Positions 5,168 to 60,968 of a stretch of 64,000 nucleotides of DNA are shown here, piece by piece. The first letter of the stretch is position 1, and each line of letters begins with the position of its first letter. The position numbers and the translations under genes were made by a program. Below the pieces are notes generated by a model. That model saw nothing but the letters and a program-made list of their open reading frames with translations, did not search any database and was not told the DNA's origin. This DNA comes from an uncultured Nitrososphaeraceae archaeon (lineage in GTDB: Archaea > Thermoproteota > Nitrososphaeria > Nitrososphaerales > Nitrososphaeraceae): the NCBI GenBank assembly GCA_963729045.1, contig CAVSMN010000021.1, positions 32,001-96,000 of the forward strand, read 5' to 3'.

Positions 5168-5226
5168 ACTCGTGTGAAATTTAATACTCGTCCAATCGAA
5201 CCATTATACCATACAGAACTTAATCA
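5168..5226 (+). repeat. Dispersed CCACCGAAC-core motif copy (modules A+B)
   Basis: ACTCGTGTGAAATT..CCAATCGAACCATTATACCATACAGAACTTAATC; matches 28579-28640. Confidence 0.7.
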
Positions 5227-5665
5227 TTATAAATCAACTCTTCATTTTGGTAACGATATCCAATAGAAGTCAAGCCAAAAACCCTATCCTAAATTCTTCC
5301 TTTTCACATACAAGAACAAAGTATACAGTATCACAAATAGTAATCAAGTTAAAGACATCTAATACTCTGATTCCGTAATATTTATGTCCTATTAAGTCAT
5401 ATAATCAACTTTTAGACTCTAACACAGACGTTATAATATTTGAATGAAACATAAGCAAAACTATGTCTCAGGCTACCAACTATCAGTAATTCATGGGCTT
5501 ATCATACGATAAAAAGGATAAATAAAATTCATAGTAATTTTTGTTTTGGGTTTATTATTTGCTAGATAATACACTTATCATATTACTTTGTCTTGGCTAT
5601 TCACAGAAGATGATCATTAAACATGACAAAGAGTTTATCAATAATATCGATGTAGAATTGGAGAA

Positions 5666-5890
5666 ATGAAAACATGTGAAATTTGTGGCGGTACAGTATC
5701 ATCTGGAACTACCACCACTATATGTTCATCTTGTACCAGTATTAAAGAATCTACAACGGCTTCAAGAGGTTCTCTTGAAGATCATATATGTGGTTGTATC
5801 AATACAGACAGAAGAAATTGCCCATGGTGCAAGAAACCATGCCATCATGATACATCCTTGAACCCTAAGATATTAATTTCACCAATGTGA
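5666..5890 (+). CDS. Small Cys/His-rich zinc-finger-like protein
   Basis: CxxC...CxxC...HxCxC...CxxC-x3-CHH in 74 aa. GGAG upstream of the ATG. Confidence 0.7.
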   Translation: MKTCEICGGTVSSGTTTTICSSCTSIKESTTASRGSLEDHICGCINTDRRNCPWCKKPCHHDTSLNPKILISPM

Positions 5891-6092
5891 TATCTAGCCC
5901 ACAACTACTTCAGTCCTAATAAGAAATGGTGTTAAACTAGAAAATACCTGCATAATTCTTAAGGATTGGATTTGAGATGTATTAGGTATGGTCATCGTTC
6001 AAAAACATTTACCTTTACCTTCATTCTAATACGACCTCAACGAATCCTCAGTATGTACTTTATCTATTTTTCCTTAATAGTTGAAATGCAAG

Positions 6093-6119
6093 CAAATTTG
6101 GGGTTGTTCCCACCGAAAC
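6093..6119 (+). repeat. Dispersed motif copy (module D)
   Basis: CAAATTTGGGGTTGTTCCCACCGAAAC. Confidence 0.5.
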
Positions 6120-6267
6120 AGCTTACTAACATGGTCTCATGGTAAGAATGCTTTCATGAATTATTCAACCAATAATATAATGAAATGATATCCAGAAAAA
6201 CGCAATTGATTGCAATTGATTACAACAAAAACGTGGACATTATTAGTCCAGATTTTCAATCATTCTT

Positions 6268-6612
6268 ATGAATTTTCAAAACATCAATTCACAACAATAT
6301 ACTGATCAAATGTCGAAACTAACATCGATATTTTCAATTCTTTTTGTTTCCATGTTTATTATGACAATCATTTTGACAGATGATAAAGGGGGCGTAAATG
6401 AGAAATCAATACCAAGACCGCAATTACCAACTTCTGAATCATCATCGACAATCGGAGATGATTTCGAATTAAAAGATCTTACAATCCCGTCACATAAATA
6501 TTTGGATGAATCTAAAATCACAAAGCAGTCAGGAACGAGTTATTTCATATCAAACTATATCAATGCGTGGAAACTAAGTAAAGCAAATTCGGCAATGCAA
6601 ATGATTGTATAA
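6268..6612 (+). CDS. Hypothetical protein with N-terminal TM helix
   Basis: 114-aa ORF with hydrophobic stretch IFSILFVSMFIMTIIL. Confidence 0.4.
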   Translation: MNFQNINSQQYTDQMSKLTSIFSILFVSMFIMTIILTDDKGGVNEKSIPRPQLPTSESSSTIGDDFELKDLTIPSHKYLDESKITKQSGTSYFISNYINAWKLSKANSAMQMIV

Positions 6613-6684
6613 AATGAATAATACGTCTCTTTCAATAGTAGTTATACACATCATGGCGGTACAAACTAGGTAACCATAGTCATC

Positions 6685-6728
6685 AAACCGATGTTATATC
6701 CTAATGATTTTAACCGAACCCGCCTATT
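6685..6728 (+). repeat. Dispersed motif copy (module A)
   Basis: AAACCGATGTTATATCCTAATGATTTTAACCGAACCCGC. Confidence 0.75.
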
Positions 6729-6783
6729 ATACGGGTTATTCTTTAATATATTCGTCATAAAAATATGGATCTTTATGATTTTC

Positions 6784-13238: not shown

Positions 13239-14100
13239 ATGAAGTCACCAAAATTGGCAATGAGGTTCGAGTTTCCCAAAGGCGTAGCCGTGGATGCTTC
13301 AGGTTATGTGTACGTAGCTGACGATGCGAATCATCGTATTCAGAAATCTGATAGCAATGGAAATTTTAGAAAAGAATGGGGAGAAGAAGGCTCTGACAAA
13401 GGAGAGTTCAAGTTTCCCAAAGGCGTAGCCGTGGATACATTCAGGCTATTTGTACGTAGCTGATGATGGCAACTGCCGTGTCCAAAAGTTTGACAGCAAT
13501 GGCAACTTCATTGGTGAATGGGGACGCAAAGGCTCTGACAAAGGAGAGTTCAAGTTTCCCAAAGGCGTAGCCGTGGATACATCTGGCTATGTGTATGTAA
13601 CTGACGACGAAAATCATCGTGTTCAAAAGTTTGACAGCAATGGCAACTTCATTACAACGTGGGGTTCAGAGGGTTCGAGAGATGGTCAACTTAAGCATCC
13701 TTATGGGATTCGAGTTGACTCCAATGGCTATGTGTACGTAGCTGACGATGCGAATCATCGTGTTCAAAAGTTTGACAGCAATGGCAACTTCATTGGTGAA
13801 TGGGGACGCAAAGGCTCTGACAAAGGAGAGTTCAAGTTTCCCAAAGGCGTAGCCGTGGATACTTCAGGCTATTTGTACGTAGCTGATGATGGCAACTGCC
13901 GTGTTCAAAAGTTTGACAGCAATGGCAACTTCATTGGTGAATGGGGACGCAAAGGCTCTGACAAAGGAGAGTTCAAGTTTCCCAAAGGCGTAGCCGTGGA
14001 TACATCTGGCTATGTGTATGTAACTGACGACGAAAATCATCGTGTTCAAAAGTTTGACAGCAATGGCAACTTCATTGGTGAATGGGGAAGACGCGATTGA
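13239..14100 (+). CDS. NHL-repeat six-bladed beta-propeller protein (1-nt insertion ~13440)
   Basis: Six copies of F.FPKGVAVD.SGY.YV.DD.N.RVQKFDSNGNFI.EWG. Confidence 0.9.
13266..14088 (+). repeat. 141-nt tandem repeat x6 with 423-nt higher-order period
   Basis: For example TTGTACGTAGCTGATGATGGCAACTGCCGTG occurs at both 13450 and 13873. Confidence 0.9.
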
Positions 14101-14459: not shown

Positions 14460-14491
14460 GAGTCAAATTTGTTTCACATATCCGAACCCGC
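14460..14491 (+). repeat. Dispersed motif copy (module D)
   Basis: GAGTCAAATTTGTTTCACATATCCGAACCCGC. Confidence 0.7.
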
Positions 14492-15680: not shown

Positions 15681-16800
15681 CAACAATCCACCCAACACTA
15701 TATGTAAACAAGACAATACTCAAATACTGGTTGGTCAGATGAGTTCTTTGAATAGATATCCATGAATATCTATTATATATCCATGAATAAAAAGATGCGG
15801 TAGTATTGATTTTGATATGACACCATTTCCTTCTCATATCGGGATTTTTGCGGGGAGGAATGTAAAATATTAATTGAGTATCATACCTTGTTGATTGTTC
15901 TTGAAACATTGGAGAGTCGGAGTGCATGTTTCCGTTATCTAATTATATTGCCACGTTACTACCAAAGTTTAATTGAATCAGGATGTTCATGTTGTTACAA
16001 AACCTGATTTTCCTTCGGTTCGACAACAAAGAAAACATTTCTAAATAAATATAATCAAACTGTTTTTGTAAGTCAGGAGGATAATAGATATTCTAGGTGA
16101 TACTGTAAAACCCACACTCTTAAAACTATTTGAGTCAACTCTATTGAAATTAGAATAGATGGTGCTTTATGACTATAATATCAAATACGAAAAAAATGAT
16201 ATTAGATCTTATAGTGGAAAAGAAACAAAAGGTGTTAACTAAGTCAATTTTAGCGAAAATCACAATAGGAGGTGATTCTAATCTTATCGAGAGAGAAAAA
16301 TGAAGACAATCATGAAATTGAACCATTAATGATTTCCGTCCTGCCTATCATATCAGCTCAAACAAAGTGGAATTGTTTTAGAGATTGAGGACCTTTTTCA
16401 ATTACTCTTATCGAAGGAAACGAATTTCATGACAAGTGTTATTTCCACTCGAAAAAGACAAAAAAATCCACAATGGGTTTTAAACCTATTCTTGATTTTA
16501 TTTAATTCCAGAATCAGGATATAGTCCAAAACTAATGGTGGCACCTAAAGAAAGCATCAAAAAAAACAATCAAGTAATTTTGTGAAGCAACGATTATCCT
16601 CATTTGACGGATAGAAATTTCGAAGAGACTACATAGAGGGAAAAGTTGCCTAGAGTTTCATGCTCCTACAATTGAAGAAGTGAGGAGGCCTATTCGTTGC
16701 TATCCCGATAGGCGTATTCGTTCAATCGTGATTGTAATGACATGGAATCTATTTAATATGGGTCATATATCTCCAATTAGGACCTAATATCATTTTGATC

Positions 16801-16808
16801 TTTATATA
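16801..16808 (+). promoter_or_regulatory. Archaeal TATA box for a probably leaderless transcript
   Basis: TTTATATA located 28-21 nt upstream of ATG 16829. Confidence 0.55.
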
Positions 16809-16828
16809 CGAAGTTATCATAACATAAT

Positions 16829-18209
16829 ATGCAAGTTGCTGTAAGATTTAATGGAGTACTTCCAAATGTCTCTGAGTTAGGAGAAGAAGAAATCTCTGAA
16901 AGAACCTTCAAAGTAATGAAGCAGAATATCGCATCAAACACGTCTTGTTCTATTTTTTCAAAAAATGAACATAATGAAAATACATCTCATGTACTTGTGG
17001 ATGTTGGCCGTGGAGTAGTCCAAAGCATTGAGCGAGGATTCTCTAGTCTTGAATTCAAATCATCATCTTTACCAGACCCCCATCTTCCTAACGCAATTTT
17101 GATAACTCATTCACATGATGATCATATTGCAGATCTTCCAGCCTTAATAGAAAAAATTACTAATAGTTCCAAGAATTTACAGATTTTCTGTACCTGAAGA
17201 ATGCTATACACAGATTGTTCAAAAGTTTCCCCAACTTTCATCTATTATTTCATCCAATCCCTCTTCTGTAATAAACAATAATGCTGTTTCAGTTAATGTG
17301 ATACGTCCAAACAATATCTTTAACATTGATAATCTTTCGATAACTCCTATTTTGGCAAACCATGGTAGCGATACTCCTACTGGTTCAGTCATTTATGTAG
17401 TAGATACAGATAATATAAAAATGGTATTTGGATGGGATTTTCTTTCTCTAGTAGACGTAGACGAAAAGATACTCTGGAATCCTGATCTTGTTGTACTGGG
17501 GGCTCATAGCTATAATCCGCATCCAGAAACAGGAATGATCTCTGTTTCAGATGCTTACTCACTAATAAGACAATGGAATGCTAAAGATAGCTATATAGTG
17601 CATTATAGTGGGTTAGCAGATCTTGAGGATGCTAAAAATCAATGGTTTAGAGGACCTACAAAACCTATGACATCGGAGGAACTACAAAAGGTAATAGATT
17701 CTAGCGGTCCTATAACAGGTGCAGAAGATCATTATTCTTTTAAAATAATAGTAGCAAAGGAAGGAATGATATGGCATTCAAAAACACAATTTGAAGATTC
17801 CATGGAACAAAATGTTAGCAATGAAAAAATAGGAAATGAACTATTAATTGAAGGGCTTGAAAAATATGTATTGAAATTTGAGCATAATTCTATAGACAAT
17901 AATTTAAAAATTATGGTTGAAGATCGAATTAATAGACGCGATTTATCCTTTGTTAATCCACACAAAGATAGTAAATACGATAATATAGTTTATGCAGAGG
18001 CAGAGAAAGGAGGAATGATGACTCGTGGTCCAGAATTGAGAATGGAGGTAATGGATACAATTCCACAATCCTCGCAGTCACAAGAAGATTCTGCTGTTGT
18101 TAAAATACTTGCTTACAAAGGTAAAAAGGATGTTTATAGAAACGATATACGGATTAATAATTCAGACGCAGTAAGGTTGAAAAGATATCTTCAAGAAAAT
18201 TTAACATAA
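16829..18209 (+). CDS. MBL-fold metallo-hydrolase (PhnP/PqqB-like) with C-terminal extension, one frameshift ~17195
   Basis: LVDVG, ILITHSHDDH (HxHxDH), ANHG, FGWD, VHYSG. Removing 1 nt at ~17195 joins the two ORFs. Confidence 0.85.
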
Positions 18210-18555
18210 TATCCTAAGCAATTAATATATCAGAAAAGGTACCTATTTCTTTATACATGTCTATAGGTACGGAAAAGATATTCTATTTAATATATGAACA
18301 TTCCTTATAATATGAAACTTTTGAGCAATAGTTAATTGGTCTATTTTATTGATAGTAATCTTAAAGTAAAAATTTAAGAGATCAATAAACTTATCGACCA
18401 TACGATGTTTACAAAACAATGAATTATGATATCTATGATGTAAAATAGTGATTTGTTGACATTATTATCGATGAATCTCTTGCTATAGACACAACAATGT
18501 ATTTCAAAGCGGATATCACATACTAATTCAATTCAATACTCAAATTAAAAAATAA

Positions 18556-18586
18556 GGACAAATTTGTTTCATATACCGCCTAACCC
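18556..18586 (+). repeat. Dispersed motif copy (module D)
   Basis: GGACAAATTTGTTTCATATACCGCCTAACCC. Confidence 0.65.
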
Positions 18587-18849
18587 ATATCAGATCTGTA
18601 ATGGATATTTGTATAATCTGATGAGAATGGCAGCAGCCCTAGAATGTCTGATTTGAACACTTTAGATGAACTAGTTTATTAAGCAAGTATTTCGGCTAAA
18701 GATAAATCAAAAGCTACGTCACGACAATTGAAGCATATAACTATCACTTTTGCTTTCACTTTAAAGCAATTACAGTGATTTTTCAGACGAGGGCTTAACT
18801 AGGAAGGATTAATTGACCGATCTGATTGAGTTCATGAAAGATTTACAAA

Positions 18850-20350
18850 ATGAGATGCGAGAACCCTGTCATGAATCAGATACTCGATGCTTATAAACCG
18901 ATGTGGTCGCTAAAACATGCCATTTCTCTAATGGGTTGGGACTTTGAAACTTATATGCCTAGAGAAGGGGCAGAAGAGAGGGGAGTGGCCGATTCTCAGC
19001 TTCACATGATGCATAAAGATCTTCTGCTAAAGAAAGATTTTAGTGGTCTTGTTGAGTCAGCGAAGAAACTGAGGAGCCTTAGTGACTTTGAGAAGGGAAT
19101 TGTACCAGGTACTTGATAGGGAAATAACTAAGCAGGTCAAGATACCCAAAGAATTGACTGAAGCAGAATCTTTGGTAAGGATAAGGGGAAATATGGCATG
19201 GAGGGAAGCAAGGGCAAAATCTGCTTTTAAGATGTATGAACCGCACTTGAAGAAGATGATAGAAATAAAGAAGCAAATCGCTGCGAAGATAGGTTATGAA
19301 AAACATCCATATAATGCACTCTTAGATACATTCGAAGAGCAGCTTACCGTAAATGACTTGGATAAAATATTCGATGCATTAACCCCTCGTATTCAAACGC
19401 TTCTGAAAAAACTCGTAGATTCAAATAGCCCGTTCTGCAAAACGAACAAACTTGCAAAATCAAAATATGATATCAATAAAGTGAATGAACTCAATCACGA
19501 TATTTTGACTCTTCTGCAATACGACATGAAACGTTTCAGAATGGATATATCCACTCATCCTTTCACCGAGACTATGGGGCTAAACGATATCAGAATAACT
19601 ACTCGGTATGAAGGGATTGATTTCAAAAAGTCGATATTTAGTACCATTCATGAAGCTGGTCACGCATTGTACAATCTACAATGCGATCAATCATTGTCTT
19701 TTTCTCCCATTGAAGGAGGATCTTCACTTGGACTCCATGAATCTCAGTCAAGGTTTTGGGAGAACATTGTGTGCAGAAGTATGCCTTTTGTTCAATTGAT
19801 AAGTCCATTGATTAGAAAACAAATAGATTTCACAAACCAAACTACAGATGACGAATTATACCTTTATTTCAATAATGTCAAAGCTGACTATATACGAGTT
19901 GACGCCGATGAAGTTACTTACAATTTACATATAGCAATTAGGTATGAGATAGAGAAAAAAATATTTGGAGATGAGCTCAATGTATCTGAGATTCCTGAAT
20001 TCTGGAACGATAGAATGGAGCAGCTTCTTGGTGTGAGGCCAACTAAGGATTCAGAGGGAGTGCTTCAGGATACCCATTGGAGCAGCGGCCTTTTTGGGTA
20101 TTTCCCAACTTACACTCTGGGAAATTTGGTTTCAGCAATAATTGCTTCAAAGATGCGAAAAGATCTAGAAGACTCCGAGGAAGACATTAAGAGGGGTAAT
20201 TTTGATCCTATCAGAAAATGGTTAAGATTAAAAATACATCAGTATGGATCTGCTTTTGCTCCCAAAGTACTTCTTGATAAGAACCTAAATGAAGGATATA
20301 ACCCAGATTACTTTGTTAACTACCTTGAGACTAAATATCTTGGCTCCTGA
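18850..20350 (+). CDS. M32 carboxypeptidase (carboxypeptidase Taq family), one frameshift ~19105
   Basis: HPF, DIRITTRY, HEAGH zinc motif, HESQSRFWEN, IRVDADE, QDTHW, GYFPTYTLG. Confidence 0.95.
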
Positions 20351-20734
20351 ACCATTGTCTGGATGATATCTAGAATCCGACTCATTATCGGTTCAAATGA
20401 ATTGCAATGTTTAAACATGTATCCGGATAGAAGATGCTAATTCAGCCTAGTTGGAATTGAGTTTGCAGGTTGAAGCAAAATTCCAATATTGGCTACCGTT
20501 CTCTGATACCAATTAATGGAAATAATACTAATCATTGTTAAACTCAGTTTTGACTGTTACGGGATGGAACATGAAACTTGGAGCATTTCTTAGGATAATA
20601 GCGGATATTGTTGACAAGTTCCACAGGTTATCTTCTGTGGAAAATGATTGGATAAGTTCTTATGTAATCATTCAAGAAATATCAAGAAGCTGAGTCAGGA
20701 CTAGCATGTATACCTTGTGGGTGAACCAAAGTTT

Positions 20735-21062
20735 GTCACAAGTCACAACTGTCCGTGTTGTACCCGTCTCCAGATGGAGAATGACCCACCGTTACAGTCT
20801 CCACCACATTATTATTTTGGTCTACTACCGAAACTGAGCCCTAGAATTGATTCATCACATACGTATGCCCATTGTCCGCGTTAAAGACGACACCACTTGG
20901 ACGGTTCCCAACCGTTATAGTTACTATGACCTCATCCTGAGCTAGAACTTTAACTAAATCAGCAAATGAAACCGCTAAAACAGCAAATACAAAAAAGGTT
21001 AGAAAACAAAAGATAATGAAGTCAAGATCGAAAATGAACTTATTGTATACACAAATCTTCAT
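20735..21062 (-). pseudogene. YncE/YVTN-type beta-propeller fragment
   Basis: Signal peptide, then TITVGNRPSGVVFNADNGHTYVMN, an in-frame stop, and GSVSVVDQNNNVVETVTVGHSPSG before decay. Confidence 0.65.
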
Positions 21063-21254
21063 TTTGAACTGGCCACATAATAATGACTATTAATTTTACT
21101 TTTAGATGTTTCTTCTATATCACTTGATGTTGTTCTAATAGAATAAATTTGATTTCGTGGTCTGTGATCATCAAAAATATCAAAGTTATTTTGTTATAAC
21201 CTGTAACCACGGAATGATAATATTCCAGGATTTCAAAACTGAGTTGCAAATTCT

Positions 21255-21286
21255 GTCAAATTTGTTTCATCTACTATCTTACCCGC
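21255..21286 (+). repeat. Dispersed motif copy (module D, degenerate)
   Basis: GTCAAATTTGTTTCATCTACTATCTTACCCGC. Confidence 0.55.
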
Positions 21287-21531
21287 ATATTATGCGGGAA
21301 TATATGTCAGATATTCTTTATTATATTCGTCATGATGTAAGGAACTTTATTATTTTCATATTAACTGGAGATTAAATATATCTCTGGAAAATTAGAGATC
21401 ACAAAAAGAAATATTTAATTGTTGGACAATCTCTCATGTTTAAGCTTTATTCTAAAATCTTATCCAATCTAGTCAAATTACAAATCAGGCCAATAACTGT
21501 AAAATATTAGAACTCTGAATATTGAGTATCT

Positions 21532-21930
21532 GTGAATATTATGGATAGTCAAGGAAACGGAAAAAACAATATTAACAACAATAACACCAAAGATGAGCAA
21601 AACATGAACAACCCTAACCAGTTTAGATTGATTACGGATTGGTGGCAACAGAATTCGCCTATGGCTTGGGGTGAAATGTATAATGAATATATTGAATACA
21701 TTACGTCCATGACTGAAATATACAAAGAGTACATTAAGCGCTCAGAAAAAATGACCGAATTGTATAAAGAATTGGCAATAAATACCGAAAAAATGACTGA
21801 CCTGTATAAAGAGTCTGTTAAGAGTACCGAAAGAATGAGTAATCAATGGCTAAATAAATTTCCTAATCCTCTATTTTCAAAAGAACAAAGACCAGAAAAA
21901 CGGGTTAGTAAACTAAAAGATAAAAAATAA
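21532..21930 (+). CDS. Amphipathic helical protein with four 14-aa repeats (phasin-like candidate)
   Basis: MYNEYIEYITSMTE/IYKEYIKRSEKMTE/LYKELAINTEKMTD/LYKESVKSTERMSN. Confidence 0.65.
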   Translation: MNIMDSQGNGKNNINNNNTKDEQNMNNPNQFRLITDWWQQNSPMAWGEMYNEYIEYITSMTEIYKEYIKRSEKMTELYKELAINTEKMTDLYKESVKSTERMSNQWLNKFPNPLFSKEQRPEKRVSKLKDKK

Positions 21931-21966
21931 CTATGATTTGAAATTATTTACAAACAAACTTGAAAT

Positions 21967-22018
21967 ACTCATGTGGATATCCTTATGATTTCCACCGATC
22001 CAGATCTCTATGTTAGTA
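21967..22018 (+). repeat. Dispersed motif copy (modules A+C)
   Basis: ACTCATGTGGATATCCTTATGATTTCCACCGATCCAGATCTCTATGTTAGTA. Confidence 0.9.
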
Positions 22019-22312
22019 TTGATCAGGATTTTATTGCAAATACTACAAATTCAAGGTGGGATAGTAGCGAACTAAGACATAAAATTTTTCTTGTCCTTTC
22101 TCATCATTCAGGTAAATATAACCACTTCTTGTTGAAGATGGGGGCCATATGGTCAAGTTCTCCGATTATCAACGAAAAATTTGGTGGTCGGTCTCATGGT
22201 CAAATGTTCAAATGTCGAATTAATGTCAATTACTAACGTCCAAGGCAAATTTTCAAAAGCCCCGATTCAAACATGTCTTCTACCCTATCCGATATCGTTA
22301 CTTCGCCTGTAT

Positions 22313-22839
22313 CTATCTCCAATGCCACATAAGAAATGTACCTGTGCCATTTTTGTCGACTTGATCCTTGTAGATTCCTGCTGAATTGCTCGGAAATGAG
22401 AGTTCACCTGTAGCACCATCATCAAAAATTGCTATTCCGTTGCTATCAAAACTACCATCTGGGTTATAATTGCCAATCGCATAAAACTTATAAGTTGCTA
22501 TATCTTTATCATCAGTAACATATTTTGATTTTCCTTGGATGTAGGATGTGTCATTGTTTCTGAAAGTCTCAGTGCCATTTCCAGCTGCAGTTATGTTTAA
22601 TGTACCATTAATTAATCCCTCGCCTGTGAAACTTGCGGTAATACTGTTGTCTGTAGTTTTCGGCTTCCCTGCGGTAGTCTCATAATGTTCAACAAGAAAT
22701 GGGTTTCCCAAATTCAAAATTGAGATGTGTTGGTGTTATCAATGGCCTGGGTGTATTGTGTGATGGCGGCCATAGAAGAGAGGGTTACAAATCCAATAAT
22801 CAATGCTAAAGCACTATTGTTTTTGATTCTGAATTTCAT
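22313..22839 (-). CDS. Secreted beta-rich hypothetical protein (paralogue of 1511..2098), frameshift ~22720
   Basis: Signal peptide MKFRIKNNSALALIIGFVTLSSMAA from 22839 joins ORF 22313..22717. Confidence 0.75.
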
Positions 22840-23204
22840 ATCAATCTTTTTGATATAGTAGATTAATAAGTTTGCGTCGTATTTCAAGGAGGAATGCTGA
22901 AAATAATATTGATTATAAATTGGTAAATATTCCTTACTCTGTTGTTTGATGATTCTTTTGACAAAATCATGTTCAATATTCTAGTAACTAACTAAATCAT
23001 TCAGATTATAACAATTGAGAATCTATTTAACAACAAGAAATGGACTACAGAAATTTCCAGGCAATCAAACTTTAATCGCGGCTTATTTTCATATCTATAG
23101 ATTTTTTCTTATATTACAAAAACATGTCATATTTGTTACACTTACCCATGAAGCCATCTAGGGTAACTAATCTCAGGTATCTTGAGTAGGCTATCTGCCC
23201 AATG

Positions 23205-24758: not shown

Positions 24759-24970
24759 GAATTCTATTTATGTTTCAACATGCCAATGTATAATTATTTT
24801 TACGTGATTTAGTTATTTTTTGTGAAATATTCATATTATTTGATAACTTTTCGCTGGCGCCATTCGAGATTAATGGTATAAGGAGTTTCATTATATAGTT
24901 AGAAAGATGACGAAATATTCGCAGATCCGTAAATCATCTTCATCTAACCTCCCACTAACAAGTCCGTATT

Positions 24971-24999
24971 CCCACCGATTGCGCTACCTTATATAAGTA
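24971..24999 (+). repeat. Dispersed motif copy (core+C)
   Basis: CCCACCGATTGCGCTACCTTATATAAGTA. Confidence 0.5.
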
Positions 25000-25215
25000 A
25001 CGAGATTTTATGAAAGGGTATCATTCACTTAGAATAATATTACTTTTAGATGCCCCTATAAAATTTAAATCACCGTAATAACATTGCACTACCACAATCT
25101 AACCATTAAATCAATTTGAGGAATTAAGGTCCCAGAGCTTATTATGGTGAGAACAATTTGAAGAGTGATAGCAGCTTGCTCTATATACTAAATATAATAT
25201 AATTTAGTTTGTCAA

Positions 25216-25609: not shown

Positions 25610-25773
25610 ATTGCTATAATAATAAATTATTACTCTCGTACGACGCAATGTGCTTAGATAGATTTACCTATTCAATTATATTTTGTTATAGATTGATGAC
25701 CTTCTTGTAATGGTTCCCTTGTATAACAAGGCCCAAGTCAAAATCTGTTTTTTAACCCATTGTTTGTTGCTCG

Positions 25774-25818
25774 ACTCATAGAGATATCCATATGATTTCC
25801 ACCGAACACGATACCTAT
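25774..25818 (+). repeat. Dispersed motif copy (modules A+C)
   Basis: ACTCATAGAGATATCCATATGATTTCCACCGAACACGATACCTAT. Confidence 0.9.
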
Positions 25819-25924
25819 CCATGGTAGCTATTGGACATTCTTTTGTTGATAATGCAAACGAGAGTATTGATACGCTGAATTATGTTATGAATCTACTTAT
25901 GACTATTCTTATAATTACTTAATA

Positions 25925-26455
25925 TTATTGAAGAGGATTTTCTATTTCATTTTTCGTATAGATCTTAAACATTCTTTTGATTTCATCTCTCATTCCTTCC
26001 GGTACTTCATAATAGACTATTATCTGTAAGGAATTGTTTGGTAGACTGTGAGATTGAGAGCCATGAGTTTTTCCTTTGAATTCTTTTATTAAATCAGATA
26101 GCGTCTCATAATGTGTTATGATCGTATCGGGTGACCCTTCTAGTATTTCCACAGAGTTATCCATCGGCTGTTTGTTGTTTGAGTTAGGCCATGATTTTTT
26201 ATAATTGTAATTATTCTTACTGCTATAATTATTCTGGAAATCATTTTTGTAAAGCGTGGGCTTTGACGAGATATTATTGTCAATTGTTCCTGCACCTGCC
26301 GATTTATTGCTATAGATTGCTCTGTTTGGACAAAAATGTTTCTTCTTTGTTAGAACCTCTGAATATTCGCTATTTAGGGTATTCCAGTAAATTTTGGTGT
26401 TACAACCATAGACACAATATTTTGAATTAGTGTTGGAGACCTCGGATGAACTCAT
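25925..26455 (-). CDS. Hypothetical protein with N-terminal CxxxC..HxC motif
   Basis: Intact 176-aa ORF containing YCVYGC...KHFCPN. Confidence 0.65.
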   Translation of the reverse strand: MSSSEVSNTNSKYCVYGCNTKIYWNTLNSEYSEVLTKKKHFCPNRAIYSNKSAGAGTIDNNISSKPTLYKNDFQNNYSSKNNYNYKKSWPNSNNKQPMDNSVEILEGSPDTIITHYETLSDLIKEFKGKTHGSQSHSLPNNSLQIIVYYEVPEGMRDEIKRMFKIYTKNEIENPLQ

Positions 26456-26659
26456 CTAAATAATTATACTTTTTAGTTAATATATATTACGCTGTGTAAC
26501 AATAGGTAATTTATCAAGATATTTTCATTATTGAAGTTACGGACTTTGACGAATTAATTACTATTATGTTTCGTTAAGTCATTAATCATACTGAAGACCA
26601 TTATTTTAATAACCCTCTCATGATCAATATGGAATGTTTTCTGTCTCAAATAAGTAAGA

Positions 26660-26837
26660 CCTACCTTCTGCAACAGGAACTGATGTCGTAGGTCACTACA
26701 CGCAGATGGTATGGAAATCTACAACTGAGGTTGGTTGAGGGACCGCCAGCGGTGGGCCAGATGACTCCAATGGGTGGGACATTCTAGTTTGTCGCTATAG
26801 CCCACCGGGCAACTACATGGGGCAAGCACCGTATTAG
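26660..26837 (+). pseudogene. CAP/SCP (PR-1-like) domain C-terminal fragment
   Basis: GHYTQMVWKSTTEVG*GTASG...DILVCRYSPPGNYMGQAPY*. TGA sits at the conserved Cys (26736-26738) and the 5' half is missing. Confidence 0.85.
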
Positions 26838-27245
26838 GAGAGTTTTTCCTGTCACTATAAATATCCCACTATCACTCTGTACCAAGATCACGAACGGAGT
26901 TGCTCCAAACAAAATAAGCAATGATTGATGAGAAGAGGTAAACAATCCTATATGCACACAACTATTAGGATCAAACATCCTTTTTGGTTCGAATAAAGGT
27001 TGATCGAGAATATAATTATTCCTGTTGAAGATATACGATAATTAAGAGGATTGCAAATATTATCAGAGAAACAAAAATAGTAGAATGCTCTTAATTTATA
27101 TCGAGTTTATTTTGTAGAAAACTATGAAAGTAGATATTTAACTGAGCCAGGGTCCTAATTTTATTTTGATGATTTTGTTCTATAATACCAACCCAATTAG
27201 ATTAATATCATATCATCTGTTTTACTCTATTAGGATCATGGTTTT

Positions 27246-27448
27246 CTATTGTGCGATTGTAATATTTCCTACAGGTAGTGTACGATTAGAAAGTTCTAAA
27301 GGCGAATTAGATTCATGCACTAGGGGTTCACCCGGATCTGCAATTGCAAGTGGCTCTCCATTTACGGCTGTTGGGTACAATGTGAAAATCCTAATATTGA
27401 AAAACTAACCATTATGACGGCTACCAAAAATACCTTAAGTACATCCAT
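27246..27448 (-). CDS. Small secreted protein (1-nt indel; not in ORF track)
   Basis: MDVLKVFLVAVIMVSFSILGF..TLYPTAVNGEPLAIADPGEPLVHESNSPLELSNRTLPVGNITIAQ*. Confidence 0.45.
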
Positions 27449-28107
27449 GTTCCTATAACTTTAGCACGAGTATTATAACATATATATTTCTTTATCTGTA
27501 TGATTTCAATGTTGTCATTTGATATATCAATACCTAACCATTTAGTGAATGACGTGTTAGTATAATTCATAACTTCAAAAAATAGAATTCATCTCAAATT
27601 TGCATACTTATGAATTTCATTGTATAACACTAGTTAACAATGTAATTATAAATTTTGTATGACCTCATATATTTACATAAATTTTATCATAAATATGAAA
27701 GCCGTGACAAACTTGGTGATATTGCAGTTGCTACTTCAGTTAAATATCTCAAAAACAGATAAATCGAATATACATGGAATAGATTTTTACTATTCAGGAT
27801 TACATTTTCCAAGGATTGATGAAAGTACCTTGCTTTTGCTATGATCTCTTATCCACCAACAAACTTGATCAAGTAGATGATTATCTAAATATGATTGACA
27901 ACCTTTTGGATCAATTTGATATGATGATCAATAAAACAAAATAGAATTGCCAATTAATTAATAGAATGTTCTATTTGTTCTAATCTTTTATAATAGTCTT
28001 GACATAAAAAACTGATGTGGGATTCGCGATATTAAGCTCTAGTAAAAACCTGAGTTGATCTTGGCCTTCTAAATTCAAAATCCATTAATATTGTTATAAT
28101 AGGCCCT

Positions 28108-28332
28108 TTGATGAATTCGAAAATCATTGCCACAATCGTAATTATTTCAATGTTTGCAGGCTTTGCAGCCTTAGTCGGCCAAATATCTCAACAGGCTTCT
28201 GCCGCTTCTATTCCTTGTGATAGCAAAGGGTCAAGTGGTCAAGGAGCTACACATTGTAACTTTGGAGATTGTAAGGTATTAATTACACCAAGTGATAAAA
28301 TAAATAAATACTCAAATAGCAAATGCAGATAA
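28108..28332 (+). CDS. Small secreted Cys-containing protein
   Basis: Signal peptide ending QASA, 4 Cys in the mature part, T-tract downstream. Confidence 0.65.
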   Translation: MMNSKIIATIVIISMFAGFAALVGQISQQASAASIPCDSKGSSGQGATHCNFGDCKVLITPSDKINKYSNSKCR

Positions 28333-28578
28333 TACCTACAATGATCAGCTATTGTATGTATAGCCTTTTTTTATTACACCAAAATTAAAATTGGGTTAAG
28401 AGTACATTATCAAGATATTTTATTATCGTTTTTGTGCCTGTAAATATGAGATTTCATTATTTGACAATATGATAACAACAAAAGGTCAAAATAAAAATAA
28501 GTTTTGCTAGTAATAAAATCAAATATTCTCAGATTATCAATCCATTTACCGGACTGACTCCAGTTAGAAAAACCTATT

Positions 28579-28713
28579 AAACCCATGTGGATCTCCTAAT
28601 GATTTCCACCGAACCCTTATACCATAGGAACTTAATCCCACTGAACCCGCTAGCTGTTTTACTATTATTGAGTGATAGAAATGGGTCAAATTTGTTTTAC
28701 ATACCACCGAGCC
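28579..28713 (+). repeat. Dispersed motif cluster (modules A+B, then D)
   Basis: Cores CCACCGAAC at 28606, CCACTGAAC at 28638 and CCACCGAGC at 28704. Confidence 0.9.
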
Positions 28714-29026
28714 TGTTATGTTATTGTTCCTTTTTCAGAACTTTATCCCAATAACCAGAGAAAGGTAGATTGATAGAAATAGAATACAGTGATCAATATT
28801 CAATGATCCTGTTTGCAATGCGGACATCCAAAACTTGAGAAAAATGCGTAGGAGGATTAAATATGTTCATTGACATTGTGGATAATCTTCCTGGGAAACA
28901 GGTACAAAAATGCGTCAGGAGGTATGAGATGAGTCTATACTAATTATCAAGTTATATATAACGATAATACATAGAATTGGGATTTATTACCAATATATTT
29001 AATAGGATCCATTACGATACTAAAGT

Positions 29027-29323: not shown

Positions 29324-29496
29324 ATATTTATTAGAAACAACAGAAAAATCCAGCCATTTGGTTTATCCTTTGAGTCAAACAAACTCTAAGAATTTTTAAA
29401 CTCATCGATACTGAAATTAAATTCACTTTTCTGAGCCTTATCTTTTTCATCCATATGAAGAAACTTGATTTAATAATTAGACTAATTTCAAGGAGT

Positions 29497-29531
29497 AACT
29501 CATGTGGAAATTCTCATGATATATACCGAAC
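29497..29531 (+). repeat. Dispersed motif copy (module A)
   Basis: AACTCATGTGGAAATTCTCATGATATATACCGAAC. Confidence 0.8.
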
Positions 29532-29599
29532 GTGCCACATGTTTTGGTAACGATGTAATATAATAGTCACTGGCACGACGGATTTAGAGATTGACGATG

Positions 29600-29830: not shown

Positions 29831-30084
29831 CCTTGTTCCAATCGCGGTAAGTATCTATCTATCACTATCTGCCAAGACCCTGATAAAGTTGCTCCAAGCA
29901 ACATATACCCTATTAAACTAAGGATAGGTAGAATCTTAATCATCTCCATCTTTACCCTATTCCCCTACTTCCTCCGCTGTCCCCTTCCCCAGTAGTCGTA
30001 TAAGGAGATACTATGGATTCACTGTTATAATATATGGTAACCATATTTTATCAGTTCAATCCATTCTTTATATTCTCATAGGCA

Positions 30085-30709: not shown

Positions 30710-30896
30710 TGTTAATATGATGATTACCTAGTAAAATACTTTAAAGGTCGTCTATTCATACGATGATTTCAAATACTTTAGAAATCATAGTCGATTATGT
30801 TATTAAAAATGGCTTTCGAGTCAAATATATGTGCGATGCAGCTGAAGTCTATTTTTCGATTATAAGTTTGTACATATCCCTTACCTTATTGAATTG

Positions 30897-30934
30897 ACTC
30901 ATCTTAATATCCTCATGATTTCCACATGACCTGC
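30897..30934 (+). repeat. Dispersed motif copy (module A)
   Basis: ACTCATCTTAATATCCTCATGATTTCCACATGACCTGC. Confidence 0.75.
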
Positions 30935-31031
30935 TTAGAAATACACACTAATATAACAGACCTAGGACTAGCAAGTCAAAATCGCAATGTTAACTTGTCA
31001 AGTAAATCTATAGTAGTTTTCGTGTGCTGGA

Positions 31032-41441: not shown

Positions 41442-41469
41442 GTCAAATTTGTTTTACATGCCACCAAAC
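41442..41469 (+). repeat. Dispersed motif copy (module D)
   Basis: GTCAAATTTGTTTTACATGCCACCAAAC, nearly identical to 28685-28712. Confidence 0.8.
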
Positions 41470-41804
41470 GCCCAATTGTATATCTCTGATAGGGGATTTT
41501 ATCTAAAAGATTTTAACATGTCCCAAAAATCTCAAACAAAAAAAAACAAGAGCTCATTTGTCAGAGAATAATAATGATTATGCCGTTAAACTATTCGCAT
41601 TGTCTATTTGCCGAGAGTTTATAATGATGTCACCTGACAGGTCAACAATTCAAACTACATTACAAGGTATGAAGTATCTGGGATAATGCCCTTCTCTGAT
41701 TAATTCATAATTCATAACAACGGTTTAAAAAGTTGAATAACAGGACAATAGAATTCCGATTTGTTTAAATATAGGTTTCAAGAAATTTCCAACGATTCAC
41801 ATTA

Positions 41805-43752: not shown

Positions 43753-43834
43753 AGTGGCGGATATTCCTGTGATTGACCCAATCCCTTATTCCGCAAGGAA
43801 CTTAATCCCACCGAACTAGATACCCATGTTAGTA
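43753..43834 (+). repeat. Dispersed motif copy (modules A+B+C)
   Basis: ..CCCTTATTCCGCAAGGAACTTAATCCCACCGAACTAGATACCCATGTTAGTA. Confidence 0.85.
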
Positions 43835-43987
43835 ATGATAGTTATTAAATTAATAATAAAAAGTCATAAATCAATGACATATAAAAAAAGTCAAAAATTT
43901 ATGATAATCTCAATAATTAATCAGTTATCTATTCAGTCTTCTTTTGATATAGGGAAGTTGAATACACTAAATATTATTTTATCTGCT

Positions 43988-48454: not shown

Positions 48455-48505
48455 AAACCCATGTAGATTTCGAGATCACCACAGAAGTCGATATCTATAT
48501 TAGTA
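48455..48505 (+). repeat. Dispersed motif copy (modules A+C)
   Basis: AAACCCATGTAGATTTCGAGATCACCACAGAAGTCGATATCTATATTAGTA. Confidence 0.75.
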
Positions 48506-48733
48506 ACGAATATATCATGAAACTATTCTAATTATTACAAAAAAAGGTCATTGCTAATGGCTATGATATCTTCGACCTTCGATGCTAATGGGTATGATAG
48601 TAGGATAAGTCCTATTGGTGAAGAGCCATACATGCTATAAAGGATACTCCAAATACCACACCCATATAAAAGGGTAGATGTCGCCCAGAAAATTACTAAA
48701 GCTCATCTATACCTTTTTGTTTTTATTTTCAGA

Positions 48734-54120: not shown

Positions 54121-54158
54121 AAACTCATGGAAATCCACATGATTCCACACCCACCGAA
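54121..54158 (+). repeat. Dispersed motif copy (module A)
   Basis: AAACTCATGGAAATCCACATGATTCCACACCCACCGAA. Confidence 0.7.
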
Positions 54159-54436
54159 TTTGTACATACTCTATTATGTCACTATTTCATTTTATAGGCG
54201 ACCTGTTAATCATTATTATGATTACACATCATCATGTTTTTGATATAGGCATTCCAATAGTTCTGACTGACAATTTCAGATGATTATCTATCTAAAATAC
54301 TGGCTACTGGCTACTGGCTCCAGATATCGAACCTGTTCGTTCATCATGGTTATACTTTCTATTCTTATAATCATGTTAAATTGAGATAAATGGATGCTGC
54401 TCGAAAATGTGAAAAAATTGTATCTTGAAAATTCAA

Positions 54437-57907: not shown

Positions 57908-58436
57908 CTAATATGGTGGTTGGCTATTGAAGTTGCCAGGTGGATTATATTGACAAACCAATACATTCGTTCCACCATATTGAGCGAATTAACCACCGGG
58001 TCCACTAGTGAATGCGCAACCAACCTCAGTTGAACGCTGGTCAACCATCTGAGTGTAGTGACCATTGCCAGAGCCGCAGGGTGCCAGGTACATAGTGACT
58101 CTTTTCGTTGACCCAGGACTGCTGCAGGACGTCCACAGTAGCGTATGACGGACCTCCTCCACTTGCCAAGTTCTCACCATAACCTGTGCCGGTGGAATGG
58201 ACCATCTGGCCTGTTGAAAGCAAATTATCGGCCCAATTCTGTGCGCTGGCGGCGATGCTGTCGCTCCACGTCAGCGGTGCAACTCCAACTGCAGCGCGTT
58301 CTTGGTTGTGGGTATTCAAGATGGTATTTTCTAAATCCCCTTGTGCATACGATAATTGCAGAACTGATGATGGTACTACTAGAGTTGCCGTCATAATCAA
58401 GATCATAGTAATTTTTACTGATATTTTGTTATACAT
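57908..58436 (-). CDS. Secreted CAP/SCP (PR-1-like) domain protein, frameshifted
   Basis: ILNTHNQERAAVGVAPLTWS, GENLA, SWVNEK, GHYTQMV..STEVGC, LVCQYNPPGN. Confidence 0.9.
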
Positions 58437-59448
58437 GATTTGTATCAATATTAGAAACAATTTAGTTTATTAATGAATCGATTAGTTTAAATACTAGTGT
58501 CTTAATAGGGAATTTTCGATTGGTCATTCAGGATTGTTCATAATGTTTATAACTTTTTAGCCCTCTTATTCACTAATTTATATCTTAAGGAATCACCGAA
58601 TAATAACGAAGGTCTAATCTTAGAGGACATAGTCAACAAATTGATTAGAATGTTTGTTTTTGAATTTATGGACCGTTGGTAAAAAGATATGTCTTAGTAT
58701 TTCTATGCAAAAGAACAAGGAACATACTTCTCAATCGGAGCATTCACTTAACTTAAGTTTAATCATAAAGATACTAAAACCTAGATGTTAAGTAACTTCC
58801 ACTATCTATACCTATCAAGTATTTGTCTAAAATAAATTAACTGTTGAATTTTGATTGTGAAATGTTCGAGAGTTGTGCAATAATAATAATAATAGTAAAT
58901 TCAGTATCCCATCTAATCTAATCTCCTTTAATTGTTTTGTATCTGTTCAAATAACACCAATCGGACCAACATCAAGGATGCTCTAATTAGGATATGCTCA
59001 TATCAGACAAGAGATAGTTAAAACAACTACAAAATGGATCTGAACATCAGCCTTGTGATTTAATGAAGGGCTGTATGAAAGTGTTCATTGAGTGGTACCA
59101 TTAGAAAGTATTCCTGTTATGTTCAAGACTAATTTATCGGAATGAACTATGAGGGTATGACGGGTCAATTTAATAATGAAAATTATGATATATGTGGTTC
59201 TTCCTGTATGACGGTTATGTGTTTGGATGTATATCTGTGCCAGAAAATGCTAAGTATGCATTAAAGTTTCGTAGGCAATATCAGTGTGTATTGCACCATC
59301 TATCGTACAGTCAGCTCATTCGTTTCAAATATCAAATAATGTCCATGCGAAATGAGAAGAAAAAAAAGTTAAGAGGAGGAACTCATAATCACTGTCAAAA
59401 GTAAATACGCGATTACCTTATAAATGACAAAACTATAGATACGTTACA

Positions 59449-60010
59449 ATGAAGCAAGATCGCAATAGATTTGTGAACATAGAAAGTAGCAAGTTTGTAG
59501 TAGCAGTTACATTGTGTTTTAGTCTTTTATGTTATAATAACTGCGACAAATATGATGTCGCCATCAGCCATCAAATTTCCATCTTTTGCATTAGCACAAG
59601 AGCAGCAAAACTTTACCGCAAACCTTGTCGGGCAGGATGTGGTTCCACCAACAAATTCTAAAGCTACTGGTACTTCTGAGTTTACTCCTAGCAGCGATGG
59701 AATGAGTATGAATTATGAGGTGTACGTTACGGATATAGATGGTGTCACACTTGCTCAAATATATCAAGGTCAAGAAGATGGAAATGGTCCTGCATTTATC
59801 AACACTCATACGCTTCAAAGATATAACTCCGAGCGGTCCAGTGAATGGGCTGTTAACCCAAGGCGTTATAACATTGATGATCTTCAAGGGCCATTGATTG
59901 GAAAACAGGTGTCTGATCTGACCGAACTTATGGAAAATAACAATACATACGTGGAAATCCAGACTACAGAAAATCCTAACGGAGAAATTAGAGGACAAAT
60001 AATCAAATAA
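59449..60010 (+). CDS. Secreted CHRD-domain protein (frameshifts)
   Basis: FTANLVGQDVVPPTNSKATG, NGP, DLQGPL.G, YVEIQTTENPNGEIRGQI. Confidence 0.85.
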
Positions 60011-60291
60011 AATAATTGACTGTACATATCGATTATTTTCGAAAATAACCGATATGATTGATTTCTGATAGAATTTTATGGATCTTGATAATCAACAAGA
60101 ATCGCCTAGTCATATATAGAAACCTTTCGGCTAGCCACAATACCAAAAATATGTGCCAAACAACTGCACATGTTATGAAATATATATAATGATCTAAACG
60201 AAATATTTGAATTCAAAAACCCACTATATATAAGAAAAGAAAAACCAGTTAAAGCAGACTAATTTAATTTAAAATTTTATTTCGATATAAT

Positions 60292-60344
60292 AAACTCATA
60301 CTGATATCCTTATTATTCCGCCAAGCTCGCAACTTATTTGAGTA
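60292..60344 (+). repeat. Dispersed motif copy (A+C, degenerate)
   Basis: AAACTCATACTGATATCCTTATTATTCCGCCAAGCTCGC. Confidence 0.6.
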
Positions 60345-60468
60345 GCACTTTATAAACGACTCATCTAATAGTAACACGTCCAAACATTAAAGAACTAGAA
60401 TTATCTTATTGAATGATAACTAGGAAACATTCAGATATCATTTATTTATAGTTTTGAAAAGCTAACCA

Positions 60469-60864
60469 ATGAGTAGTGACGATATAAAAAAGGGCGAGTC
60501 AACTGAGGAAGTATTAATTATAAAAAAAACACTCGCTCAAGAATTTTTTTATTTTCTAAAAACATTTGGTATAATTGGTTTAGCAATAGCCTTTGTTATT
60601 GGTCAGGCTGCCTCTGGACTAGTGACTTCCTTCGTAGACGACATCATAAATCCCCTAATTGGATTATTTTTACCTGCGGGAAATCTAGATGCAGTGTCTG
60701 TACAGGTACCTAATATATCAAGTGGAACTACAGAGTTTAGAATTGGACAACTTATATCAAGTATTATTGACTTTCTGATAATCGCTCTAGTCGTGTTTCT
60801 TGCATATAAGCAACTATCGCGATTTAAATTGGTAGATGATAAAATTATACCTGAGAAGAAATAA
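60469..60864 (+). CDS. mscL: Large-conductance mechanosensitive channel MscL family
   Basis: EFFYFL..FGIIGLAIAFVIG.A...LVTSFVDDIINPLI; GQLISSIIDFLIIALVVF. Confidence 0.9.
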   Translation: MSSDDIKKGESTEEVLIIKKTLAQEFFYFLKTFGIIGLAIAFVIGQAASGLVTSFVDDIINPLIGLFLPAGNLDAVSVQVPNISSGTTEFRIGQLISSIIDFLIIALVVFLAYKQLSRFKLVDDKIIPEKK

Positions 60865-60902
60865 TCTTCTATATCTTTTTTGATCTCTCATATTCTTAAT
60901 CC

Positions 60903-60968
60903 AACTAGTGTGAATATCCTATGATTCTCACCAAATCCTCTATACAATACTCTATTTAATCTCACCAC
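60903..60968 (+). repeat. Dispersed motif copy (modules A+B)
   Basis: AACTAGTGTGAATATCCTATGATTCTCACCAAATCCTCTATAC..TTAATCTCACC. Confidence 0.7.

Follow-up and report, generated by a model that had tools for sequence, protein, structure and literature searches.

Integrases that target tRNA genes are well established, and the model of array formation applied below builds on that knowledge. In streptococci, integrase-less cis-mobilisable elements flanked by attachment (att) sites accrete in tandem at a tRNA-type site and are possibly moved by the integrase of a neighbor; these cases involve one or a few elements, are bacterial, and are coupled to conjugation. For archaea, She and colleagues are said to have described in 2001 a form of "gene capture," in which the cargo of tRNA-inserted elements is kept after the ability to excise has been lost; in that model, integrase genes of the SSV type are reportedly split by integration, leaving int halves at the borders. 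The principle of the island seated in a tRNA gene (tDNA island) is set out in Islander (PMC4383910). Among thaumarchaeal integrated elements, 57% lie in tRNA genes, the att sites are short (median 17 bp), and arrays arise by re-use of a site, according to the main text of a survey (PMC6563490) in which "tRNA-Lys" and "Nitrosocosmicus" have 0 occurrences. We found no description of the array reported here in the literature searched, supplements excepted. It consists of short, co-oriented repeats between the genes of a 64,000-nt stretch of DNA from an uncultured Nitrososphaeraceae archaeon, referred to below as the window (G000:C21:32001-96000).

The assembly that holds the window (G000) comprises 2.85 Mb in 22 contigs with 34% G+C, is 87% complete, and encodes an archaeal AmoA. 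Coordinates are those of the window unless a contig is named. We compared the window with three complete genomes of the same genus (G041, G012, and G015), with further relatives including G004, G005, and G043, and, over window positions 16001-36000, with the metagenome contigs of 4 runs from 4 studies (soil, sediment, and rhizosphere). A preliminary description had listed 22 copies of one degenerate motif and proposed an integron-like array of gene cassettes or, alternatively, a replichore-polarised motif.

The repeat core is the 3' end of tRNA-Lys

The 13-mer core of the repeat, CCACCGAACCCGC, is identical to the 3' end of tRNA-Lys(CUU), taking in the 3' strand of the T-stem, the 3' strand of the acceptor stem, and the discriminator base. 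This origin was missed by the preliminary description. The tRNA-Lys(ctt) gene was found by ARAGORN at C14:114694-114783, where the Rfam tRNA model scores 61.8 bits, and it ends in ...GTGGGTCCGAATCCCACCGAACCCGC. As an exact match, the 13-mer occurs in the 2.85-Mb assembly at the tRNA-Lys end only, and tRNA-Lys is the one tRNA of the 32 predicted in the assembly that has this end. Since the core is the 3' end of tRNA-Lys, the array corresponds to a well-known product of repeated integration at a tRNA gene. Our preferred explanation, to which we assign a probability of roughly 0.85, is that the core sites are displaced tRNA-Lys(CUU) 3' ends, that is, att sites, and that the window lies inside a large island that grew by accretion, through repeated site-specific recombination at that gene.

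The copies far exceed chance and share one orientation. The exact 9-mer CCACCGAAC is present three times in the window, always on the + strand, against 0.14 expected; with up to one mismatch there are 14 matches (4.0 expected), 13 of them on the + strand. For the 13-mer with up to three mismatches, the window holds 15 matches on the + strand and 0 on the − strand, compared with 2.19 expected on both strands together, and 0 of 100 shuffles reached 15. Across the whole of C21, the 13-mer with up to two mismatches gives 11 + and 1 − matches. The exact core is found on C21 in 8 + and 1 − copies, whereas the 4 + and 4 − copies in the remaining 2.66 Mb represent background.

Repeat finding and nhmmer resolved what had been taken for a single motif into two arm classes that share one core. 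Class A consists of ACYCATGTGGATATCCTCATGATTT followed by the core, class B of GGTCAAATTTGTTTCACATA followed by the core, and a third, shorter form of ACTTAAT followed by the core; the right arms are hairpin-like and of several kinds (types 1-4). We scanned the window with R1, a sequence-only covariance model of the class A copies, with filters off, and scored class B copies by nhmmer. All 12 R1 matches at E<0.001 and all five class B copies lie on the + strand, and R1 finds nothing below E 0.2 on the minus strand except where the palindrome of a class A copy is read a second time, in keeping with the earlier claim of a single strand. Seventeen of the 22 sites first listed proved robust (6685, 14460, 18556, 21255, 21967, 25774, 28579, 28683, 29497, 30897, 32061, 41442, 43753/43808, 48455, 54121, 60292, and 60903). 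Four are marginal: 5168 (E 1.7), 6093 (E 0.12), 51431 (E 0.087), and 24971 (E 0.26), the last of which combines a 13-mer match bearing three mismatches with a typical right arm. The site at 50027 is nearly unsupported, a 13-mer match with three mismatches being all that it shows.

Every one of the 26 strong copies on C21 falls outside open reading frames (ORFs) of at least 80 aa, which occupy 51% of the region, so the intergenic placement reported earlier stands. Such placement is what a regulatory element common to many genes (a promoter, transcription-factor site, or terminator) or a small-RNA gene would show; moreover, the class A arm forms an imperfect palindrome of 20 bp, which from its sequence is likely a candidate protein-binding site, and the type 3 right arm occurs upstream of an integrase gene in G015. 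We nevertheless consider a regulatory role highly improbable. The orientation of the copies and their distance to the flanking genes (31-1491 nt) are unrelated to those genes, and all four flanking arrangements are found around the 26 copies (+/+ 9, +/− 8, −/− 5, and −/+ 4), as the preliminary description had argued for polarity. The copies are confined to one island, with no regulon-like spread, and the window has no Rfam match at E<=1. We also rejected an RNA hairpin as the meaning of the class A palindrome, as its mismatch is uncompensated in the variants. The window itself contains no tRNA or Rfam family (Rfam E<=1; ARAGORN); the tRNA-Lys gene sits on another contig.

Within the genome, class A has nine + matches on C21 at E<0.01, plus one on C12 and one on C20, and the nine class B matches at this threshold are all on C21, + strand. 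Of 24 other genomes of the genus, 20 contain the class A 26-mer (up to three mismatches), and none of 16 further genera of the order does; a reversed control pattern has 0 matches everywhere. Contigs with at least two 26-mer matches carry them on a single strand in 26 of 27 cases, the exception being G002:C182. Many copies of the class A unit agree letter for letter between species, although other intergenic DNA of these species fails to align.

A second co-oriented repeat family, with the core CCACCGG(A/G)CCCGC, was seen on the + strand of our assembly at C20:3403, 4267, and 5356 and on the − strand of G041 at ≈1.054-1.062 Mb; one copy is preceded by GGATTCGAAGC. To judge by its letters, this repeat resembles a different tRNA's 3' end and may point to another array with a tRNA as its anchor; no tRNA for it is among the 32 ARAGORN tRNAs of the assembly.

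In complete relatives the array starts at the tRNA

Positions 101.8-114.78 kb of C14 are syntenic with the left flank of the array in G041, G012, and G015, and synteny stops exactly at tRNA-Lys. Downstream of this gene, each of the three complete genomes carries an array of repeat copies (9-31 copies over 70-160 kb), co-oriented with the tRNA:

G041, 1,344,265 (the tRNA end itself) to 1,505,737, + strand: R1 array, 31 matches
G012, 2,095,254-2,196,197, + strand: R1 array, 9/9 matches
G015, 2,476,445 (the tRNA) down to 2,407,968, − strand: R1 array, 13 matches

The minus-strand R1 matches in G041 are five palindrome echoes and three matches outside the array; G015 has two − matches near 1.80 Mb and five weak + matches at 2.85-2.87 Mb outside its array. 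Beyond the island, strong copies (class A, class B, or core) were seen at G041:C1:1,836,874 (−) and in G015 at ≈1,797,634 and 1,800,219 (−). These copies lie within a few kb of tRNA-Ser genes, those of G015 beside a 442-aa integrase-like ORF, and they may be modules carried into other islands.

The strict co-orientation, independent of the genes, also suits a replichore-polarised motif related to replication forks or segregation, of the KOPS, Chi, or Ter kind, and the motif does lie on the leading strand relative to orc1 in 3/3 complete genomes. The copies are, however, limited to one 70-160 kb island per complete genome and are not spread genome-wide. With orc1/cdc6 at 563,580 (G041), 1,480,951 (G012), and 132,132 (G015), the islands lie 0.22-0.27 of the circle from it and not at the antipode, a mapping that rules out a terminus or fork trap. 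Synteny conserved with the tRNA accounts for the common orientation, the core itself equals the end of a tRNA, and the G041 outliers lie in the same replichore in the opposite sense. We therefore give this alternative next to no credence.

The preferred explanation, accretion at tRNA-Lys, accounts for the polarity. Each insertion would regenerate the tRNA and shift older material downstream behind a copy of the core; since a regenerated tRNA and a displaced core would result every time, all copies would have one orientation regardless of how the cargo genes are oriented. The sequence to the left of a core (class A, class B, or others) would then be the right end of one inserted element, and the sequence to its right (hairpin types 1-4) the left end of the next, older element. 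Copy quality follows position: the R1 score declines along C21 (Spearman −0.79, p 1.6e-4, n=17), from 38-65 bits up to 63 kb of C21 (with a single exception of 28 bits) to 16-21 bits beyond. In G041, 28 of the 31 R1 matches fall within the first 97 kb of the array, and the distal part (window 32-57 kb) is the part whose order is kept in G041 and G004. The gradient and the conserved distal order together fit insertion at the tRNA end with outward displacement of older material.

One relative retains a large element next to the gene. Downstream of tRNA-Lys in G015 stands a gene for an integrase-like protein of 454 aa (PHROG integrase E 2.5e-5; PF00589 E 1.5e-3, below the cut-off) without a sequence match in PDB. 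An ORF of 364 aa and a gene for an MCM helicase (PF00493 E 4e-39) come next, and after 23 kb the element is closed by the core repeat TTCCACCGAACCCGT. The left arm of this element is of type 3, and its right arm is of another kind than class A. Scraps of its integrase sit ≈60-110 nt past cores in two other genomes: a frameshifted homolog behind a class A copy in G005 and an N-terminal piece behind a core in G012. The match of the core to the tRNA, the anchoring of the array there in complete relatives, the shared orientation of the copies, and the breakpoints at cores are demonstrated here; we infer that tyrosine-type integrases were the inserting agents, as we do the order of events outlined above.

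These arrangements also bear on the idea of a tRNA-derived repeat, similar to a miniature inverted-repeat transposable element (MITE) or a short interspersed nuclear element (SINE), that spread by transposition or local duplication. The copies are indeed short, numerous, devoid of genes of their own, and tRNA-like in their core. We nonetheless hold such a repeat to be very unlikely: neither copies in both senses nor genome-wide dispersal were found (below E 0.01, all matches are on C21, + strand, except a single one on C12 and another on C20), left and right arms are combined independently at the core, the array begins at the tRNA itself, and the same repeat bounds the 23-kb integrase element.

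Homology breaks at the cores

Relatives hold the genes of the window as shuffled modules, with homology switching on and off at cores. The copies scored in the window, and the one strain-variable segment among them, are as follows, with core positions and breakpoints where noted:

6685..6751, + strand: class A arm, core TAACCGAACCCGC, type 3 right arm; R1 45.6 bits, E 3.5e-13; 13-mer with 2 mismatches
14462..14491, + strand: class B arm, core TATCCGAACCCGC; nhmmer E 3.8e-5; G004:C25 homology ends at core start 14480
18557..18587, + strand: class B arm, degenerate core; nhmmer E 4.6e-6; G041 homology begins at 18559
21255..21300, + strand: class B arm, degenerate core, type 3 right arm; nhmmer E 6e-4; G004:C25 homology begins at 21281
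21967..22028, + strand: class A arm, core CCACCGATC, right arm; R1 58.6 bits, E 3e-17; metagenome contigs diverge left of 21967
24969..25007, + strand: marginal copy, core CCACCGATTGCGC, type 2 right arm, no class A or B arm; R1 E 0.26; 13-mer with 3 mismatches
25773..25838, + strand: class A arm, core 25799-25807, right arm; R1 50.3 bits; joint 25802->28687; relatives' matches start at 25799
25803..28686, no strand: strain-variable segment, the module between class A cores 25799 and 28606; skipped in metagenome contigs, with 87 letters instead
28579..28650, + strand: class A arm, core 28606, type 1 hairpin, ACTTAAT, second core 28638 CCACTGAACCCGC; R1 51.6 bits; 13-mer at 28606 and 28638; X5 loose end at 28611
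28685..28716, + strand: class B arm, core 28704; nhmmer E 3.8e-7; X5 loose end behind 28708
29497..29563, + strand: class A arm, core ATACCGAAC, right arm; R1 48.1 bits
30895..30959, + strand: class A arm, degenerate core, right arm resembling the post-tRNA-Lys sequence of C14; R1 38.4 bits
32061..32116, + strand: partial class A arm, core TCACCGAAC; R1 20.2 bits, E 2.9e-5
41442..41473, + strand: class B arm, core CCACCAAAC; nhmmer E 4.4e-6
43753..43846, + strand: hairpin, ACTTAAT, core 43808 (exact 9-mer), type 2 right arm; R1 18.5 bits, E 9.7e-5
48455..48509, + strand: decayed class A copy; R1 16.4 bits, E 4.6e-4
54121..54191, + strand: decayed class A copy, core CCACCGAAT; R1 18.2 bits, E 1.2e-4
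60292..60351, + strand: decayed class A copy; R1 18.1 bits, E 1.4e-4
60905..60965, + strand: decayed class A copy; R1 18.5 bits, E 9.8e-5

Two comparisons with G004:C25 illustrate the switch. Along the NHL-repeat gene and the class B arm, the two sequences are homologous up to the core (window 14480, subject 7065) and have different right arms beyond it. At window 21281 (subject 18915), that contig has a class A arm where the window has class B, both joined to the same right arm and gene. Window 25799, where a core begins, is also where the matches of three relatives set in, and homology with G041 and G004 ends at 24940-24945, near the marginal copy at 24969..25007. The right arm of the copy at 30895..30959, TTAGAAATACACACTAATATA, also adjoins tRNA-Lys on its 3' side on C14.

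Breakpoints between strains fall on cores as well, as the preliminary description had anticipated. A joint from 25802 to 28687, which skips 2884 nt and has 87 letters between, is present in metagenome contigs of X1 (1 contig) and X5 (record 20), which come from two different studies. Loose ends of 221-255 nt in X5 lie at 28611 and 28708, both inside cores, and five contigs (two of X5, three of X6) depart from the window to the left of 21967, where a class A arm has its edge. The joint is best read as presence or absence of one module because the class A copies at 25763 and 28570 lie 2807 nt apart. Contigs rather than reads were compared, and frequencies and circles are not visible in such data; gaps in contig cover at ≈26.7-28.0 kb (X5, X6, and X10) were not counted alone as evidence.

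Over 94 kb, C21 has ≈36 candidate cores, including a few weak ones; neighboring cores lie a median of 2.3 kb apart (range 31-9381 nt). Cores 28606, 28638, and 28704 enclose "empty" units of 32 and 66 nt.

The metagenome contigs also bear on several genes. At window positions 19108, 25523, and 30317, one base is absent from every covering contig; 19108 and 30317 are the points at which ORFs are split (the M32 peptidase, 18850-19116 and 19082-20350; and 30085-30321 and 30314-30709), and several split genes in the window may be assembly indels or strain-specific frameshifts. In the 401-aa ORF at 32763-34420, which is made of ≈10 tandem 165-nt repeats, has no Pfam match, and is multi-copy in relatives, repeat number varies between metagenome contigs (joint 32851->33716). 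The NHL-repeat ORFs at 13265-14100 are composed of 141-nt tandem repeats. G043:C59 holds a ≈9-kb module matching window 32.2-42.6 kb twice, one copy being inverted.

Cargo and the question of a recombinase

By Pfam, the 71 ORFs of the window and 63 flanking ORFs encode transporters, oxidoreductases, a P450, Pth2, MscL, sensors, and many proteins without a match, with no replication, conjugation, virion, or integrase genes among them. The earlier statement that no recombinase is encoded in the window is borne out, none being found by Pfam among its 71 ORFs of at least 70 aa. Other gene labels given at that stage fared less well: the truncated PolB at 32258 has a sub-threshold Pfam match (E 0.0022), the truncated CAP (ORF 29667) and IS6 (ORF 6792) genes have no Pfam match at E<=0.01, and the "phasin-like" label was not confirmed by Pfam. 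The protein of 176 aa encoded at 25925-26455 (− strand), which matches nothing in Pfam or PHROG, has a cluster of Cys residues at its N terminus and a middle part of low complexity. Genomes throughout the genus contain several copies of homologous DNA each, and the matching stretch in three relatives starts at the adjacent core.

At its left end, C21 carries the 5' 740 nt of a 23S rRNA gene and a full 16S rRNA gene (C21:1-2579, minus strand), followed by genes for an HflX-like GTPase and a small winged-helix protein, the start of the latter lying 81 nt from the first class A copy. Around the tRNA-Lys gene on C14, the upstream genes encode an iron-dependent alcohol dehydrogenase (Fe-ADH) and a polyketide-cyclase-like protein, and the downstream ORFs have no Pfam match; no intI was found there.

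A serine recombinase was considered as the agent and set aside. One conserved protein of this kind (≈200 aa) is encoded in each of five genomes (C12:250206-250649 in our assembly; also G041, G012, G015, and G004), but nothing ties the resolvase-family gene to the sites, and it lies far from the array.

The failure to find a recombinase in most arrays examined, together with the density of the cores, leaves room for cassettes moved by a trans-acting integrase. We regard it as possible, though doubtful, that the island is an integron-like platform. Most modules, notably those with a type 2 arm at the start and a class A arm at the end, would then be small integrase-less cassettes that an integrase acting in trans excises, shuffles, and puts back, either at the tRNA-Lys end or at other cores. 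Under this tentative scheme, the ≈60-nt class A/core/type 2 junction might play the role of attC and the tRNA end that of attI. At least seven C21 modules of 0.8-9.3 kb begin with a type 2-like arm, end with a class A arm, and carry no integrase, and there is no PF00589 match inside the arrays of G041 or G012, on G004:C7, or on C21. The constancy of the class A 26-mer between species, the strain-variable module at 25799-28606, the shuffling of module order between species with orientation kept, and the two empty units all agree with cassette movement. On the other hand, no helper integrase is tied to class A arms, the sole integrase-bearing element seen has other arms, and the integrase scraps beside cores in G005 and G012 indicate that ordinary decay of full elements occurs. 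Nor was a free element with the site found: the class A 26-mer has 0 matches in IMG/VR, the 14 matches of shorter patterns (a 16-mer and a 17-mer tRNA end, at 9 and 5 loci) are all in unrelated contexts with no arm similarity, and a 34-mer retrieved only three short metagenome contigs (2-4 kb), none of which matches the G015 integrase. The genes, moreover, lie on both strands, which leaves no common promoter logic.

Weighing accretion at tRNA-Lys

Several observations weigh against accretion by site-specific recombination at tRNA-Lys. The first concern its agents. No PF00589 match at E<=0.01 was found in our genome, at 87% completeness, which has only scraps of the G015 integrase, on C18 and C12; a search of the genome found no remnants of G015-element proteins on C21. 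The lack of PF00589 matches within the relatives' arrays, noted above, counts here too, and the modules are unusually small at 2.3 kb median core spacing and carry ordinary cellular genes without backbone genes. A second group concerns location. There is no C14-C21 join in our assembly, and the tail of C14 past the tRNA runs for 9.5 kb without further cores; because the two contigs remain unjoined, linkage of array and tRNA is established only in the relatives. A few strong copies outside the islands have the opposite sense (G041 1,836,874 and 1,057,550), and G015 has its weak + cluster at 2.85-2.87 Mb. The breakpoints, finally, allow other readings. Homologous recombination between 46-nt repeats could yield the same 25802->28687 deletion, and the 87 letters at the joint are presumed to be a diverged form of the 28610-28686 segment. 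Of ≈60 endpoints of BLAST blocks, only ≈7 are found 35 nt or less from a core, and the rest mostly follow gene borders; this test is not decisive because BLAST blocks mostly follow genes. With no detectable intact integrase in the assembly, the array of this genome is probably inactive unless a helper arrives.

A striking sequence pattern thus receives an explanation by a testable mechanism. The finding locates the main hypervariable region of this genus of ammonia oxidizers, 70-160 kb behind one tRNA-Lys in three complete relatives, in which accessory genes such as those for transporters, oxidoreductases, P450, and MscL come and go and change their order. The cores provide exact landmarks for comparing pangenomes and for tracing an integrase together with the att site it uses. 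Copies of the att site are more numerous and more densely packed than passages of the thaumarchaeal mobile-element survey (PMC6563490) describe, and the want of a recombinase in most arrays examined likewise exceeds those descriptions. The array also raises the question of archaeal cassette systems that are integron-like in their working and unrelated by origin; were cassettes indeed moved in this way, the island would be a standing gene-capture platform for a whole genus of soil ammonia oxidizers.

Comparison with known systems

The gene-capture model attributed to She and colleagues has in common with the present locus that an archaeal chromosome retains the cargo of elements inserted at a tRNA gene, and differs from it in that no int halves flank the modules here. 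As in the streptococcal accretions, the modules are att-flanked, have no recombinase of their own, and stand in tandem at a tRNA-type site, although here there are dozens of them and their mobilization is only hypothetical.

With chromosomal integrons, the array shares long series of co-oriented sites that separate small, mostly single-gene modules, the placement of the newest and best-preserved sites near the anchor, and the shuffling of module order between relatives. Unlike in integrons, the anchor is a tRNA gene rather than attI and has no intI beside it, the sites are copies of a tRNA end with heterogeneous arms rather than attC hairpins, and the genes lie on both strands instead of being co-oriented under a common promoter. 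Paired inverted cores of the attC type were not seen, the window having 0 reverse-complement cores; a dedicated attC model (IntegronFinder) was not run. The directional recombination sites bounding gene modules that the preliminary description proposed are thus retained, whereas the identification with integrons is not, in view of the missing IntI, the lack of attC-type architecture, and the genes pointing both ways.

The island resembles tDNA islands. An intact tRNA marks one edge, at the synteny break in G041, G012, and G015; displaced tRNA 3' fragments form direct repeats in the same sense; an integrase-like gene, identified by weak profile matches, adjoins the tRNA in at least one genome (G015); and content differs between strains and species. 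It departs from them in its finer grain, with ≈36 cores in 94 kb here and 31 R1 matches in 160 kb in G041, in that most modules here have neither an integrase nor backbone genes, and in being a fixture of the genus, given the presence of the class A 26-mer in most of its other genomes. It is this dense spacing of cores, at a median of 2.3 kb, together with the finding of no recombinase in most arrays examined, that makes the array unusual. Overall, the island is tRNA-anchored and recombination-based, and is neither an integron nor a replichore motif.

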